DNA of 64,000 bases, from positions 688 through 64,687 of the forward strand of contig MFLU01000016.1 in the NCBI GenBank assembly GCA_001783335.1, written 5' to 3'. How positions within the stretch are numbered: position 1 is the stretch's first letter; every line of letters starts with the position of its first letter. Shown here piece after piece: positions 44,788 to 48,746 of this stretch. Made by a program: the position numbers and the translations under genes. Below the pieces are notes generated by a model. The model made no database searches. It was not told the origin of the DNA and saw only the letters and a list, made by a program, of their open reading frames with translations. Source of the stretch: Candidatus Kaiserbacteria bacterium RIFCSPLOWO2_01_FULL_50_24 (GTDB lineage: Bacteria > Patescibacteriota > Minisyncoccia > Phycocordibacterales > UBA2100).

Positions 44788-45066
44788 TCATTCTAACGTT
44801 TTGCAAAATGTTAGAACGTGATTGGCGCGCGGCGTTAGCTTATGCCGCACATCCCGCCCCGCATGGCGCTTCATCACAAGGCCCGCAATGGCGAGTTTTC
44901 GTATGTGGTCGGACGCATTCTCATAGCCGATGTTTAGTGTTTCGGAGATCTCTTCAACAGAGAGCTCCGGACGCCGATGCAATAACCCTAGAATCTCGAG
45001 CCTCCGATGATTCGCAAACCCCTTCACGATACGCTCCATCACGCGGCATGACTTAACTTTTACCAT
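44788..45066 (-). CDS. ArsR/SmtB-family regulator, paralog R3
   Basis: MVKVKSCRVMERIVKGFANHRRLEILGLLHRRPELSVEEISETLNIGYENASDHIRKLAIAGLVMK. Confidence 0.6.
   Translation of the reverse strand: MVKVKSCRVMERIVKGFANHRRLEILGLLHRRPELSVEEISETLNIGYENASDHIRKLAIAGLVMKRHAGRDVRHKLTPRANHVLTFCKTLE
44791..44816. promoter_or_regulatory. Palindrome family O3 copy overlapping the last codons of R3 (TTCTAACGTTTTGCAAAATGTTAGAA)
   Basis: 26-bp near-perfect palindrome that also encodes the C-terminal ...VLTFCKTLE. Confidence 0.4.
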
Positions 45067-45083
45067 ACCGCCAGTGTACAACA

Positions 45084-45111
45084 TACAAACGTTTTGCAAA
45101 ACGTTTGTATG
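45084..45111. promoter_or_regulatory. Palindrome family O3, perfect 28-bp copy (ATACAAACGTTTTGCAAAACGTTTGTAT) 18 bp upstream of the R3 start
   Basis: Perfect palindrome. A second copy lies at 45176-45197. The flanking motif gtttgtatgaaatg is repeated three times across 45100-45215. Confidence 0.5.
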
Positions 45112-45175
45112 AAATGTGTAATACCCGAGTGAAAATGTTTGTATGAAATGAAAGTGGAAAACAGTGTATAACACT

Positions 45176-45197
45176 CAAACGTTTTGCAAAACGTTTG
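45176..45197. promoter_or_regulatory. Palindrome family O3 copy
   Basis: CAAACGTTTTGCAAAACGTTTG. Confidence 0.45.
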
Positions 45198-45261: not shown

Positions 45262-45888
45262 TCATACCTTTGGCGTAAGAACAAAAAAGTGATGGTATTG
45301 ATTTTCAAATGGCACATACTCCTTTTCAATCACGAAGTGTTTCAATAAATTATTGCGGAGTCGTTGCACCGAGTATCCACGCTTCCCGAGCTCCCAATAG
45401 TGCTGTCCGTTGAAAAAATGCTGAATAGGATAGGGGACTTTAATCGCAAATTTCAGCTCCGGTAAAAAGGGAAGTTTGAGGAGGAATGTAAGCGGAGGGC
45501 CGAAGTGTGGGACACTTATTAAAACTTTTTTCTTTGCAACGCGCACGAGCTCGGATAGGGAAGTGTCAAGCTTTTCAAAAGGCAAATGTTCCAAAACTTC
45601 AAACGCACACGCAATATCAAACGATTTATCCGCGAACGGAAGTGCCGTAATAGAACCTACAACATCAGCACCGACGTCATCTGCGATATCTACGGATGTG
45701 TATCTAATCTCGGTGTTCCGAGTTAGGTAACTTGACACTACCCCATCCCCTATTCCTACTTCTAACACAGACGCGGGCTTTACTCCGATAATTTCCGAAA
45801 GTTGATGGTGATAACTCGCCCATCGATCCATTCCGCAATAGCGGAAAAATTCGTATACACTCTTGTCTACTTGTTTTTGAGTATCCAT
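45262..45888 (-). CDS. Class I SAM-dependent methyltransferase
   Basis: VLEVGIGDG motif I. Start at MDTQKQ. Confidence 0.55.
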   Translation of the reverse strand: MDTQKQVDKSVYEFFRYCGMDRWASYHHQLSEIIGVKPASVLEVGIGDGVVSSYLTRNTEIRYTSVDIADDVGADVVGSITALPFADKSFDIACAFEVLEHLPFEKLDTSLSELVRVAKKKVLISVPHFGPPLTFLLKLPFLPELKFAIKVPYPIQHFFNGQHYWELGKRGYSVQRLRNNLLKHFVIEKEYVPFENQYHHFFVLTPKV

Positions 45889-46796
45889 ACAAGTTTTTCT
45901 ATAAGCGCGGTGAGCGAATGCTCGCGACGCACATACTCCCGGTCGGCGGATTCTAGATGTTTGAGCGCAGGGTCGCGGGTAACGACTGGCAAACCGCACG
46001 CAAGCGCCTCCAAAACCACCTTGTCCAAACTCCCCGTCTCGCTCGTGTGCAGCAAGACAAAAGCTTTTCTGTATTCATCACGCAGTTGCAGTTGCGTCAT
46101 AGCGCCTAAAAACTCGACGTGGGTGTTAAGTGAGTGTGTCAGTGCCTCGAGATTTTTCCGCTCCGGCCCCTCCCCCGCGATGTGCAAAACTCGGCCCTGC
46201 TCGGTGGACATATGGATAGCAAGGTCGTGTCGTTTACTTTTATTAAGCCGCCCCGCAGAGAGCGCGTGCTCTCCTCGCGGCACGTTTGGATCAGGCGTGA
46301 AAAAATCGGTATCAATGCCATGGCCAACCACCTGCACTTTTTTGCTCGGGAGTCTAAAACTTTCACGCGACGCGGTAAAAATAATGTCGGCAAATTTTTC
46401 TGCTATCCGGAGTTTAAGATCCACACTCTTGTGCGTGTACCATAGTGCCGTTTTTTTGCCCAACAAGCGCCACAGCCATCCGGCCATCACCAGATACTCC
46501 GGATTCATGTGCACAAAAACCGCATCGTAGTTGCGCCGCTTCTGCCAGATTAGTCGCCAAAATCGAAAAACGTATACAAGGCGGTGCAGAAATTCCAAAT
46601 TCCAAATTCCAAATTCCAAAGATTCCTTTCCGAGCGAATGCACCGCAACATTTTCAGGCAAATTGTGAACGCTTTCTTTCAAACAAATCACGTGTACTTT
46701 CTCGCAATTTTTCGCAAATTCCTCAATCCAACGGTGAAAAAAACCGAGAACGGAATCGTTCTGGTCTACAACCTGCGTTACGATGAGAAGTCGCAT
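45867..46796 (-). CDS. GT4-like glycosyltransferase (short)
   Basis: Contains the heptanucleotide tandem repeat. C-terminal EALACGLPVVT motif. Confidence 0.55.
   Translation of the reverse strand: MRLLIVTQVVDQNDSVLGFFHRWIEEFAKNCEKVHVICLKESVHNLPENVAVHSLGKESLEFGIWNLEFLHRLVYVFRFWRLIWQKRRNYDAVFVHMNPEYLVMAGWLWRLLGKKTALWYTHKSVDLKLRIAEKFADIIFTASRESFRLPSKKVQVVGHGIDTDFFTPDPNVPRGEHALSAGRLNKSKRHDLAIHMSTEQGRVLHIAGEGPERKNLEALTHSLNTHVEFLGAMTQLQLRDEYRKAFVLLHTSETGSLDKVVLEALACGLPVVTRDPALKHLESADREYVRREHSLTALIEKLVWILKNK
46591..46618. repeat. Tandem heptanucleotide repeat (AATTCCA)x4 inside GT4 gene 45867..46796
   Basis: Minus strand reads GGAATTT x4, translated ...EFGIWNLEF... Gain or loss of one 7-nt unit shifts the frame. 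Confidence 0.7.
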
Positions 46797-47674
46797 GGTG
46801 ACATCGCATTTTTGCCATATACACCTTCCAGTAAGTCGGAATCTTTTCTGGAAGACACGAGCAAATCATTATTCTTGCACTCAAGCGCTTTCAGAACATT
46901 CAATCCCTTTTTATCATCCGGTAGACACTCCGCATACAATGTGCGAAGCGCCGCAAAATCTTTAATGAAACAGTGTCCGCCTGCGCCGCGCCCCTCTTTC
47001 GCCCCTTCGTGCCCGCTTGAATGCTTGACGCGCAGGTGCGAGCCGCCGATGCGCGGGTCAGCAGCAATCGCCCCCTGTATCACCTGCCAATCGGCCCCTT
47101 CTTTTTCTGCGAGGTCATGCATGATGTTCGCAAAAATTACTTTGAGATACAGAAACGCGTTGCCTGCATATTTTATGATCTCCGATTCCCGCGACGTGCA
47201 AATGAGATTGAATGGCGCTTCCGGAAGTACGGCAAGTACTTTTTTTGCCGCTTCCTCATACTTCCCACTGCGCTCCGGCACACCAACAATGTTACGCTCC
47301 GGATTTGAAGCGTTATGTGAGGCGGTCGCTTCGGCAAGAAATTCCGGAGAATGTAGAATTATTTTATTCGGATACTGTTTTTGGATTGATTCGGTCGTCC
47401 CTGGAAGCACGGTGGACTTTATGACCGCTATATTTCCCTCGCCCACCAACGCGACAACCGAGCGCACTATGGAATCATCAAATCCTTTTTCCGTTGTCGG
47501 CGTCGGCACTGCAACGAACACGATATCGCTCGAGCTTATTTTTTCCTTATTCTGACTGTACACTTCGCTCCGCGCATAGCGCACCGGCTCATACCCGCGC
47601 CGCTCAAAATCGTTAGCGTAGTTTTTGCCTATAAACCCCTGCCCAATAAATCCTATGGTTGGTTTCTCCACCAT
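46778..47674 (-). CDS. UDP-sugar dehydrogenase-family protein, short form
   Basis: IGFIGQGFIGKNYA Rossmann fold, catalytic AGGHCFIKD, only about 299 aa. Confidence 0.5.
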   Translation of the reverse strand: MVEKPTIGFIGQGFIGKNYANDFERRGYEPVRYARSEVYSQNKEKISSSDIVFVAVPTPTTEKGFDDSIVRSVVALVGEGNIAVIKSTVLPGTTESIQKQYPNKIILHSPEFLAEATASHNASNPERNIVGVPERSGKYEEAAKKVLAVLPEAPFNLICTSRESEIIKYAGNAFLYLKVIFANIMHDLAEKEGADWQVIQGAIAADPRIGGSHLRVKHSSGHEGAKEGRGAGGHCFIKDFAALRTLYAECLPDDKKGLNVLKALECKNNDLLVSSRKDSDLLEGVYGKNAMSPCDFSS

Positions 47675-47684
47675 AATGATTACT

Positions 47685-48746
47685 TTATGGCTGTTTCGTG
47701 CATAACTCAAGGTCTTTCTTAAACTGCTCTAGGTATGACGCTTTGTTTACATATGGATAACCGTGCAATCCGTCGTGTCGCGAGCCACTCTTGAACCACC
47801 CTGAAAGCGCATCTGCAAATTCCTCGGGTTTTGCGACTATGGCGCCTGCCTCGCGCGCTATGCCAACATCCGTTGCAACGACAGGCACGCCGGAGGCAAG
47901 CGCTTCAATTATGACGAGGCCGTAGCCCTCGTAGTGCGAGGTAACGAGCACAAGATCGGCTATCTTGTAGTACAGCACTGCATTCTGCGCGCCCTCAAAA
48001 AACACACGCTCCTCGACATTCAAACGTTTTGCAAAACGTTGCAATGATTCCCTCTCGCGCCCCTCGCCAACAATAATGAGGCAGGAGTCGCGCGGCGCCG
48101 ACGCGGCAAACGCTCTGATTGCGAGCGACACGTTTTTCTCGGGCTCAAGCCGCGCAACCACGAGGATTCTAGTGCGGAAACTCCCAAAACGCGCGGCAAT
48201 TGCGGCATCTTCAGGCGCACTCCGGAGACGCTCAATATCAACGAAGATTGGTAAAACAACTTGGGTAGCTTTTAGCTTATAGCTGCTGGCTTCTAGGGAG
48301 GACTTGAGGTGTTCACTTATGACTCTGATACCATATGCACGAGCAAACACAAAACGTGCTATACAAAGCCGTACAACGTTCCACAGTGGATGCCACCTGA
48401 AATACGGCGAGAACATGTCGGTATGAAGCTGGATGTGAAGTTTTGCACGCGTACCGCGACTCGCAAAATACGCGATGAGTCCGTATTCAAACGGGTCTTG
48501 CGCAGATACGACGTCAATGCCGCGCTCGCGGATGACACATCGAGTTCTTGTGTAGAGCGCCAAAAATCCGGAAACGGGATACAGGGTGAGATTTTGCTCT
48601 TGTATTTCTGTTCTACTACTTTGCGGTGCTCGAGAAATAACGTGAAGTTCGTCAAACAACGTTGCATATTCGCGCATCCGAGCATAGACCGCACTTTCGG
48701 CATCAAAGATAAGCGGATCGTTAGAAACAAATAGTACCTTAGTCAT
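47685..48746 (-). CDS. GT4-family glycosyltransferase
   Basis: MTKVLFVSNDP... and EALASGVPVVATDVG. Confidence 0.7.
   Translation of the reverse strand: MTKVLFVSNDPLIFDAESAVYARMREYATLFDELHVISRAPQSSRTEIQEQNLTLYPVSGFLALYTRTRCVIRERGIDVVSAQDPFEYGLIAYFASRGTRAKLHIQLHTDMFSPYFRWHPLWNVVRLCIARFVFARAYGIRVISEHLKSSLEASSYKLKATQVVLPIFVDIERLRSAPEDAAIAARFGSFRTRILVVARLEPEKNVSLAIRAFAASAPRDSCLIIVGEGRERESLQRFAKRLNVEERVFFEGAQNAVLYYKIADLVLVTSHYEGYGLVIIEALASGVPVVATDVGIAREAGAIVAKPEEFADALSGWFKSGSRHDGLHGYPYVNKASYLEQFKKDLELCTKQP
48021..48041. promoter_or_regulatory. Palindrome family O3 copy located inside the coding region of GT4 gene 47685..48746
   Basis: CAAACGTTTTGCAAAACGTTG, read in frame as ...QRFAKRLNV... Confidence 0.35.

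Follow-up and report, generated by a model that had tools for sequence, protein, structure and literature searches.

We analysed a 64,000-nucleotide (nt) stretch of DNA from Candidatus Kaiserbacteria bacterium RIFCSPLOWO2_01_FULL_50_24 (GenBank assembly GCA_001783335.1, contig MFLU01000016.1, positions 688 to 64,687; hereafter the window) and found that the gene for a small winged-helix regulator, R3, is bracketed by copies of a palindrome, O3, which is highly likely to be the operator of R3 and to serve in its autorepression. Copies of O3 stand upstream of R3 and within its last codons, and another is embedded in the gene of a GT4 glycosyltransferase. The operator bracket around the regulator's own gene, seen in all 80 ortholog loci examined and in paralog families, is new, as are the writing of the operator core into the regulator's own C-terminal helix and the presence in a glycosyltransferase gene of a second site that is both conserved and dual-coded. 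Autorepression of the ArsR type is ordinary, and operators inside genes are of a known kind. The existence of the sites, their conservation, the constraint on their synonymous codons and the covariation of site and protein are established by the comparisons reported here.

Next to nothing is known of how members of the Candidate Phyla Radiation control transcription, as most of them cannot be grown. Our findings supply a conserved regulator, a candidate operator motif, an apparently leaderless promoter geometry, and candidate targets in a cell-surface glycosylation cluster. They also provide a natural case of two codes written on one DNA, with 8-10 codons of the regulator frozen in 79/80 genomes and eleven codons in an enzyme gene. 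If the embedded sites do act as roadblocks or insulators, they would show how very compact genomes separate their transcription units.

O3 sites in the window and the putative promoter of R3

The R3 gene (45066..44788, minus strand) encodes a predicted ArsR/SmtB-fold winged-helix regulator of 92 amino acids (MVKVKSCRV...LTFCKTLE*). Gene callers pick a start at 45084, which lies 18 nt earlier and inside the palindrome, while the 80 orthologs favour the ATG at 45066. The family consensus of the ~30-bp operator is TATTCTAGTgTTTTGCAAAAcACTAGAATA, its core is TTTTGCAAAA, and the variant found in the window is CAAACGTTTTGCAAAACGTTTG. An initial annotation of this DNA had listed four O3 copies, and all four were recovered as matches of the 22-mer CAAACGTTTTGCAAAACGTTTG with at most three mismatches: 45086-45107 (none), 45176-45197 (none), 48021-48042 (two) and 44793-44814 (three). 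The 22-mer had no match in 100 dinucleotide-preserving shuffles, and the chance expectation is zero. We also scored the window with a position weight matrix built exclusively from the non-coding upstream operators of 79 other genomes. The copy at the 3′ end of R3 scored 36.0 bits, the copy in the GT4 gene 33.2 bits, and the two upstream sites 31.6 bits (site 1) and 28.3 bits (site 2), so the two highest scores in the window belong to the two copies inside genes. The next-best score across the 64 kb was -5.7 and the shuffles reached a maximum of -0.4; there are only four O3 sites. A fifth occurrence of TTTTGCAAAA, at 44549, was rejected as an O3 site because its matrix score (-5.7) is far below those of the four real sites.

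Site 1 (45082-45111) is a perfect 30-bp palindrome, CATACAAACGTTTTGCAAAACGTTTGTATG, centred 30 nt upstream of the R3 ATG. It had previously been described as a perfect 28-mer at 45084-45111; the perfect palindromy holds, but the palindrome extends over 30 bp and the 28-mer within it occupies 45083-45110. Site 2 (45172-45201, core 45176-45197) lies 90 bp upstream of site 1. A hexamer TACACT follows each of the two (45163-45168 after site 2), and together they make up an operator-promoter module duplicated in tandem at a period of 90 bp. The outer-arm repeat GTTTGTATGAAATG, said to occur three times upstream of R3, does so exactly three times without mismatch (45103-45116, 45137-45150 and 45193-45206), with one additional degenerate copy at 45206-45219 (two mismatches). 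Two of the exact copies belong to sites 1 and 2, and the copy at 45137 is a half-site without a second arm.

Site 3 (44789-44818), the top-scoring site in the window, lies in the last 8 codons of R3. Its 26-bp palindrome (44791-44816) is present as first reported, although it is O3-like and imperfect, with 12/13 pairs matched. The palindrome takes in the final 8 codons (L T F C K T L E) and 2 nt of the ninth, and the stop codon (44788-44790) follows directly. The site thus falls within codons 84-92, which places an O3 copy inside the regulator's own coding region. Site 4 (48017-48046) lies within the GT4 open reading frame (ORF) 47685..48746 (minus strand), where it covers the codons for S-L-Q-R-F-A-K-R-L-N-V.

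A putative -10 hexamer, TACACT (45073-45078, minus strand), begins 3 nt after site 1 and ends 6 nt before the R3 ATG. The window thereby follows the commonest ortholog class, in which the order is operator, 3 nt, TAnAAT, 6 nt, ATG; the classes with longer spacing have a TGnTATAAT-like box ending 6-9 nt before the ATG. The distance of only 6-9 nt between the -10-like box and the ATG suggests that the R3 mRNA is probably leaderless. In the promoter inferred from the ortholog consensus, the operator core TTGCAA and the right arm occupy the -35/spacer region, a classical arrangement for promoter occlusion, and an inverted repeat lies over this promoter in 79/80 ortholog loci, where binding of an R3 dimer is predicted. 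The earlier proposal that an upstream O3 copy overlaps the R3 promoter is supported by this anatomy. An antitoxin gene nearby has the same leaderless look, with TTGACA, 16 nt, TATATT, 7 nt and ATG (44448-44483), and leaderless mRNAs may be common in these genomes.

Conservation of the bracket and of its codons

The R3 ortholog set consisted of 80 loci, from a total of 316 loci found, that were fetched from species-representative genomes. They span Kaiser-, Nomura-, Adler-, Taylor-, Lipton- and Paceibacteria-type genomes, and R3 is part of a conserved ortholog group of Patescibacteria. The core TTTTGCAAAA is found 22-83 nt upstream of the ATG in 79/80 orthologous loci, most commonly at 30 nt, and in the last codons in 79/80, where 16 nt separate its centre from the end of the stop codon. 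By matrix score, a site at the 3′ flank is present in 80/80 loci. The sole exception to the coding overlap is L032, in which TTC TGC CGT stands at these codons and the site, a perfect palindrome, has moved to +58 nt past the stop; conservation thus concerns the presence of a site at the gene's 3′ end, for which overlap with the coding sequence is usual and not obligatory. The upstream and 3′ sites are separated by 279-340 bp from centre to centre (median 295.5). Extra upstream O3 copies are frequent, in several loci there is a distinct site farther downstream, intergenic DNA has solo sites, and in L013 sites are found on both sides of the R3 ortholog gene.

Codon usage distinguishes the site from the remainder of the gene. 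At conserved residues elsewhere in R3, synonymous codons are mixed (Phe, TTC 43 and TTT 35; Lys, approximately 50/50), with synonymous codon entropies of 2.2-2.4 bits for Leu and ~1 bit for Glu. The last ten codons, in contrast, are fixed: Ser is TCT in 43/44, Leu is CTA in 76/80, Phe is TTT in 79/80, Cys is TGC in 80/80, Lys is AAA in 79/79 and Glu is GAA in 44/44. Where residues do change, they track the palindrome, such that Leu-Thr (CTA ACA) occurs with ACG TTA, and Leu-Val (CTA GTG) with ACA CTA. Since synonymous codons are frozen only at the site, selection acts on the DNA itself at the 3′ end of R3. Taken with the GT4 site described below, the pattern of codon constraint indicates that the embedded copies in both genes are very probably functional DNA elements.

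We also compared the two sites of each bracket with one another and with the protein. Outside the core, flank identity between the upstream and 3′ sites is 0.756 within genomes and 0.623 between genomes, a value reached by none of 2000 permutations. Sites with AAC-type arms, which include the O3 sites of the window itself, are accompanied by Arg or Lys in the turn of the beta-wing in 12/12 loci, whereas such a residue accompanies arms of other types in 3/59 (Fisher p = 3.6e-11, with no correction for phylogeny).

The window contains three paralogs of R3, termed Ra, Rb and Rd, which have different palindromes. Ra and Rd have theirs in the same two places as R3. The Ra palindrome, CATACCAACATTCTCAAGTATGTTGGTATG, occurs as 30-nt copies after the Ra stop (1940-1969), upstream of Ra (2274-2303) and, 1.6 kb away, between an epimerase-like ORF (3917..4984) and ORF 2449..3678 (3863-3892); this is a three-site logic like that of R3. 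Four Ra orthologs in unrelated neighbourhoods (L167-L170) have a 37-42-nt repeat upstream, and a further copy coincides with the stop codon or comes shortly after it. In Rd (60312..60046, minus strand), one palindrome lies in the last codons (60041-60072) and another upstream (60322-60353). The 3′ copy of Rd, after which comes TATATT, precedes the ATG (60042) of an rsmI-like gene by ~22 nt and may therefore also control that gene. Rb (23877..23575) has an imperfect palindrome upstream (23885-23916); a second copy was looked for at its 3′ end and none was found, making it the only paralog in the window outside the bracket pattern. The upstream and 3′ pattern recurs, again with a separate palindrome, in a distant paralog in L071. 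Taken together, the likeness of flanks within genomes, the covariation of wing and arms, and the paralogs' possession of palindromes of their own indicate that the O3 sites belong to R3. Just upstream of the R3 ortholog in L003 (~3925-3960) we also observed TCTCTAATTCGCGCGAATAAGCGAATAG, a match to the 3′-end palindrome of the L071 paralog; different mini-ArsR paralogs can thus adjoin each other.

The second embedded site lies in a full-length glycosyltransferase gene (47685..48746, minus strand) with Glycos_transf_1 and Glyco_trans_4 domains, the product of which appears in public records as a hypothetical protein of Candidatus Kaiserbacteria. The copy is in frame and encodes QRFAKRLNV, as initially noted. 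The idea that this peptide is an insertion did not hold, since an alignment of 29 homologs is ungapped over SLQRFAKRLNV, which corresponds to the common GT4 motif L-x-x-L-A-x-x-L-G-V, most GT4 homologs having other peptides at this position. The peptide SLQ[RH]FAKRLNV is found in 6/82 related GT4 loci (L085, L086, L091, L092, L093 and L127), and all six, together with the window, encode it with the same DNA, tcattgcaacRttttgcaaaacgtttgaatgtc. The proteins of the six orthologs are 47-53% identical to that of the window gene, and the seven are 47-70% identical to one another. Among conserved residues, the fraction encoded by identical codons is 0.87-0.90 at the site, the gene-wide maximum, compared with 0.43 for the whole gene. 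We looked for the same peptide encoded by non-palindromic DNA, which the initial annotation had named as the observation that would count against it, and found that the peptide-bearing orthologs all use the palindromic DNA.

L085 and L086, the two of these loci that are annotated, have a common gene order: TrwB-like, HHH/PKD, epimerase, GT4, GT4, GT4 with the site, dehydrogenase and glycosyltransferase (GT). The presence of the site at the same codons in orthologs of 47-53% identity, together with this synteny, indicates that the GT4 site is old and selected and is not the scar of a recent cassette. As no R3 gene lies within 6-8 kb of the GT4 loci, the site is independent of adjacency to R3. 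In two other loci with GT clusters, L108 and L144, sites of the consensus-arm type are found between genes. In L094, a GT4 homolog has LLQSFAKECAC as the corresponding peptide, and a short palindrome distinct from O3, TCCTTTGCAAAGGA, stands there in place of the site; this could be a diverged or decaying site.

Proposed operator function and alternative explanations

We favour, with some reservation, an explanation in which these palindromes would be autorepressor operators, acting by promoter occlusion upstream and as auxiliary operators or roadblocks within genes. The reading of the palindromes as R3 operators, first proposed from the window alone, gains support from the conserved bracket, the frozen codons, the codon constraint in GT4 and the matrix scores; R3 binding, repression and the roadblock step are inferred. 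An R3 dimer bound at site 1, over the -35/spacer region, would turn off its own promoter, giving negative autoregulation by promoter occlusion. Site 3 and the GT4 site would be further R3 binding sites, selected at the level of DNA, with the coding sequence bent to fit them. The F-C-K of the R3 C-terminal helix would then be the translation of the operator core, TTT-TGC-AAA.

The in-gene copies could serve as auxiliary operators that halt elongating RNA polymerase, or as insulators. At site 3, a roadblock would place a second, concentration-dependent brake on full-length R3 mRNA, and the site could insulate this small autoregulated unit from co-directional neighbours; at the GT4 site, it would curb transcription of the distal portion of the glycosylation operon. 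Among modes of action we prefer the roadblock because it fits both embedded sites, has a precedent in C.Kpn2I and would insulate a small autoregulated unit in a co-directional array, but that it is the main mode of the embedded copies is a tentative proposal, with the odds somewhat against it. More speculatively still, and with a low probability, the mini-ArsR genes of Patescibacteria could be self-insulating cassettes with an operator at both gene ends, if need be within the C-terminal codons, in which a promoter lock and a protein-dependent terminator or insulator clamp a 290-bp gene, the same proteins partition co-directional arrays via sites within ORFs, and the F-C-K motif is dictated by the protein's own DNA target.

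Several observations weigh against the autorepressor and roadblock explanation. The whole case is one of comparative sequence analysis. The weight matrix was trained on upstream sites, so the upstream counts are partly circular, and only the 3′ and GT4 scores are independent of the training set. The association between wing and arms may stem from one or a few evolutionary events. No R3 ortholog was found within 6-8 kb of the GT4 loci (0/82), and the link between R3 and the GT4 site is the sequence match alone. The genes adjoining additional sites in other genomes, which by sequence include restriction-like, sigma-factor-like, HD hydrolase, TspO, methyltransferase and other genes, give no coherent function. 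A roadblock in the last codons would also generate stop-less mRNAs, which would be costly, and ArsR-family dimers are not known to act as roadblocks.

The alternative that fares best is cooperative looping or bridging, in which R3 dimers at the upstream and 3′ sites would contact each other in the style of lac O1-O2 or gal OE-OI, or would spread as an AspA-like filament. The ~290-bp gene would then be enclosed in a repression loop, and the embedded site would aid promoter occlusion without blocking elongation. Two sites of equal quality kept ~290 bp apart in 80/80 genomes fit such a loop, as do the frequent extra upstream copies and the flanking sites of L013. AspA, to which the R3 model bears a resemblance (template modelling (TM) score 0.70-0.72), is itself a small ArsR-like protein and spreads from a palindrome. 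Helical phasing of the sites, however, is not significant (Rayleigh p 0.08-0.17 at 10-11 bp), although loops of this length tolerate poor phasing. ArsR/SmtB proteins are also typically plain dimers, and looping leaves the lone GT4 site unexplained where there is no second site within 6-8 kb. We regard looping as unlikely, though it deserves to be kept in view.

It is less probable that the 3′ copy serves the downstream neighbour as its operator-promoter, through which R3 would co-regulate that gene, with the coding overlap reflecting genome compaction. The placement of the Rd 3′ copy before the rsmI-like gene has this appearance, as do the post-stop copies of the Ra orthologs, which lie 36-79 nt upstream of the next gene; the right arm of O3, TAGAAT, is also reminiscent of a -10 box, and in the window it is followed after 7 nt by an ATG. 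Among R3 orthologs, however, the next co-directional ORF begins anywhere from -4 to +329 nt from the stop, the post-stop sequence is unconserved, and several loci have their separate site further downstream. In the window, the ORF after site 3 is a remnant that was not called as a gene. A role as next-gene promoter is thus unlikely in general, but may apply to Rd and the Ra family.

The initial annotation had also raised cassette mobility as an origin of the GT4 copy. More broadly, the palindromes could be substrates of recombination or duplication, like attC sites or miniature inverted-repeat transposable elements (MITEs), with the GT4 and intergenic copies as scars. Some features do recall such a process: the upstream site often repeats the 3′ end of the gene in direct orientation, asymmetric flanks included (identity 0.756 direct versus 0.686 inverted); there are repeats of 35-42 nt and solo sites in intergenic DNA; the neighbourhoods of R3 loci are not syntenic between genomes; and the R3 segment of the window has a copy of a 57-nt methyltransferase C-terminal sequence on either side. 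Mobility does not account for a GT4 site held at the same codons in syntenic clusters of orthologs this divergent, and we discard it for that copy. The synonymous codons frozen in 79/80 orthologs point to a standing function, no recombinase or integrase is present among the called genes within 10 kb, the window has only four sites, and phage records gave no match. These hints of duplication and recombination may explain the spread of the family and the origin of the bracket, and do not explain its present conservation; as an account of the sites themselves, mobility is improbable.

An element acting at the RNA level, with the palindrome serving as an mRNA hairpin, terminator or 3′ stabilizer of an mRNA without leader or trailer, is very improbable. 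The arms do covary with palindromy kept (CTAAC...GTTAG versus CTAGT...ACTAG), and a hairpin would end exactly at the stop codon. The 10-bp core, however, is invariant in sequence beyond what pairing alone would demand; position 6 from the centre pairs in 14/79 3′ sites, most mismatches there being not even G-U wobbles, and position 11 is mismatched in about one third of 3′ sites. No U tract follows, a terminator scan gave no terminator-like site past R3 on the minus strand, and the same sequence is present in the non-transcribed promoter. A search against Rfam of the region (by E-value) and of the whole window (by gathering score) gave no match above threshold, and its sub-threshold matches to miRNA precursors were caused by the palindromes. 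That the palindromes are a by-product of conserved peptides (FCKTLE, FAKRLNV) or of chance is hardly credible, since, although these peptides stand in sensible places (ArsR helix alpha5 and the GT4 L-x-x-L-A-x-x-L-G-V motif), it is already contradicted by synonymous freezing confined to the sites in R3 and GT4, by the drift of the codons in L032 once the site had left the coding region, and by the expectation of zero chance matches and the other peptides of most GT4 homologs.

The R3 protein, related systems and genomic surroundings

R3 passes the cut-offs of two Pfam families, HTH_20 (35.2 bits, cut-off 27) and HTH_5 (28.3 bits, cut-off 22), and falls just under that of the NCBIfam model HTH_metalloreg (50.4 bits, cut-off 55). 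Its AlphaFold2 model (predicted local distance difference test, pLDDT, 92.4) has helices at residues 6-17, 20-31, 37-44, 48-60 and 79-91 and strands at 64-69 and 72-77, giving the fold alpha1-alpha2-alpha3-alphaR-beta1-beta2-alpha5, in which alpha5 corresponds to residues 79-91. Foldseek comparisons of the model with CadC, SmtB, CzrA and HlyU gave TM scores of 0.8-0.88. The closest solved relatives are HlyU, CadC, SmtB and SqrR, and AspA is more distant. There are more than 1000 relatives of R3, mostly of ~90 amino acids and 65-87% identical, and those with names come from metagenome genomes of Kaiser-, Magasanik- and Paceibacteria type; phage records were searched for relatives and none were found.

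The ligand sets for metals or metalloids (Cys-x-Cys in alpha3; His/Asp/Glu in alpha5) were not found in R3, and an alignment of 28 sequences contains no Cys in alpha3, which suggests that R3, if a member of the ArsR/SmtB fold at all, is one that does not sense metals. The sole Cys conserved in all aligned R3 orthologs is C88, in F-C-K, and it is not conserved in Ra, Rb and Rd. R3 resembles the non-metal-sensing ArsR/SmtB regulators of the HlyU/PagR type, which have ~90-100 amino acids, an alpha1-alpha5 winged helix with a beta-wing, and bind inverted repeats at promoters, as proposed for R3. HlyU (PDB 3jth, 4k2e) gives the best PDB sequence matches to R3 (E ~3e-10; fold TM 0.75-0.85). To our knowledge, no second operator copy has been described in the 3′ codons of HlyU/PagR-type genes themselves. 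The Pfam and NCBIfam libraries and literature searches gave no described family or study covering the Patescibacteria R3 group, and literature searches on the motif, on ArsR regulators of Patescibacteria and on leaderless promoters in the group returned nothing specific.

Auxiliary operators or roadblocks inside genes include lac O2 in lacZ, gal OI in galE, the PurR site in purB, and sites of CodY and CcpA. O3 resembles these in that a repressor site lies in coding sequence, where repression occurs by looping or by a block to elongation. In those systems the site lies in a target gene, usually near its 5′ end, whereas the embedded site of R3 lies in the regulator's own last codons, fixes part of its peptide and is conserved across a class-level group of genomes. 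ParB/Spo0J has a parS site inside its own gene, and AspA of pNOB8, with its ArsR-like fold, binds a palindrome upstream of its own operon, so that both, like R3, have a palindrome in or next to their own gene. Unlike these systems, R3 has no partition ATPase or ParB gene nearby, and its sites stand in ordinary gene clusters. Integron attC cassettes, like R3, have a short ORF whose 3′ end carries an imperfect palindrome; R3 differs in having no integrase, in carrying the palindrome in its promoter as well, and in showing purifying selection at fixed orthologous positions. The C.Kpn2I controller protein serves as a roadblock to elongation from a binding site within its own ORF (PMC6237814). It differs from R3 in that it belongs to a restriction-modification system, has an Xre-like fold and a single in-gene site, while R3 has a promoter site and a site at the extreme 3′ end and is found in cellular gene clusters.

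R3 stands at the end of a long minus-strand array for cell-envelope glycosylation, in which several GT4 genes, a UDP-glucose-dehydrogenase-like gene, a further GT and a methyltransferase precede it; past R3 lie a RelB/YafQ toxin-antitoxin pair and then more transferases. No synteny was found between the R3 ortholog loci and the glycosylation cluster of the window. The methyltransferase C-terminal sequence that flanks R3 on both sides (FVIEKE[YF]VPFENQYHHF; 45280-45336 and 44703-44759) is a 57-nt duplicate with 84% amino acid and ~82% nucleotide identity. Its downstream copy begins right after the R3 stop and lies outside any called gene, and the pair suggests an old insertion or duplication event.

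Between R3 and RelB/YafQ, an inverted repeat of ~20 nt, ACCCCCACACCTATTGAGGCG / CGTCTCAATAGGTGTGGGGGT (44483-44503 and 44600-44621), encloses ~100 nt. The interval 44483-44621 holds the rejected fifth copy of TTTTGCAAAA and has no Rfam match. Within the array, a perfect heptanucleotide tandem, AAATTCC x 4.4 (46590-46620), lies inside a glycosyltransferase ORF (45867..46796, minus strand). As 7 is not divisible by 3, the frame of this ORF would shift whenever a unit was added or removed, and the AAATTCC repeat is a possible phase-variation tract.

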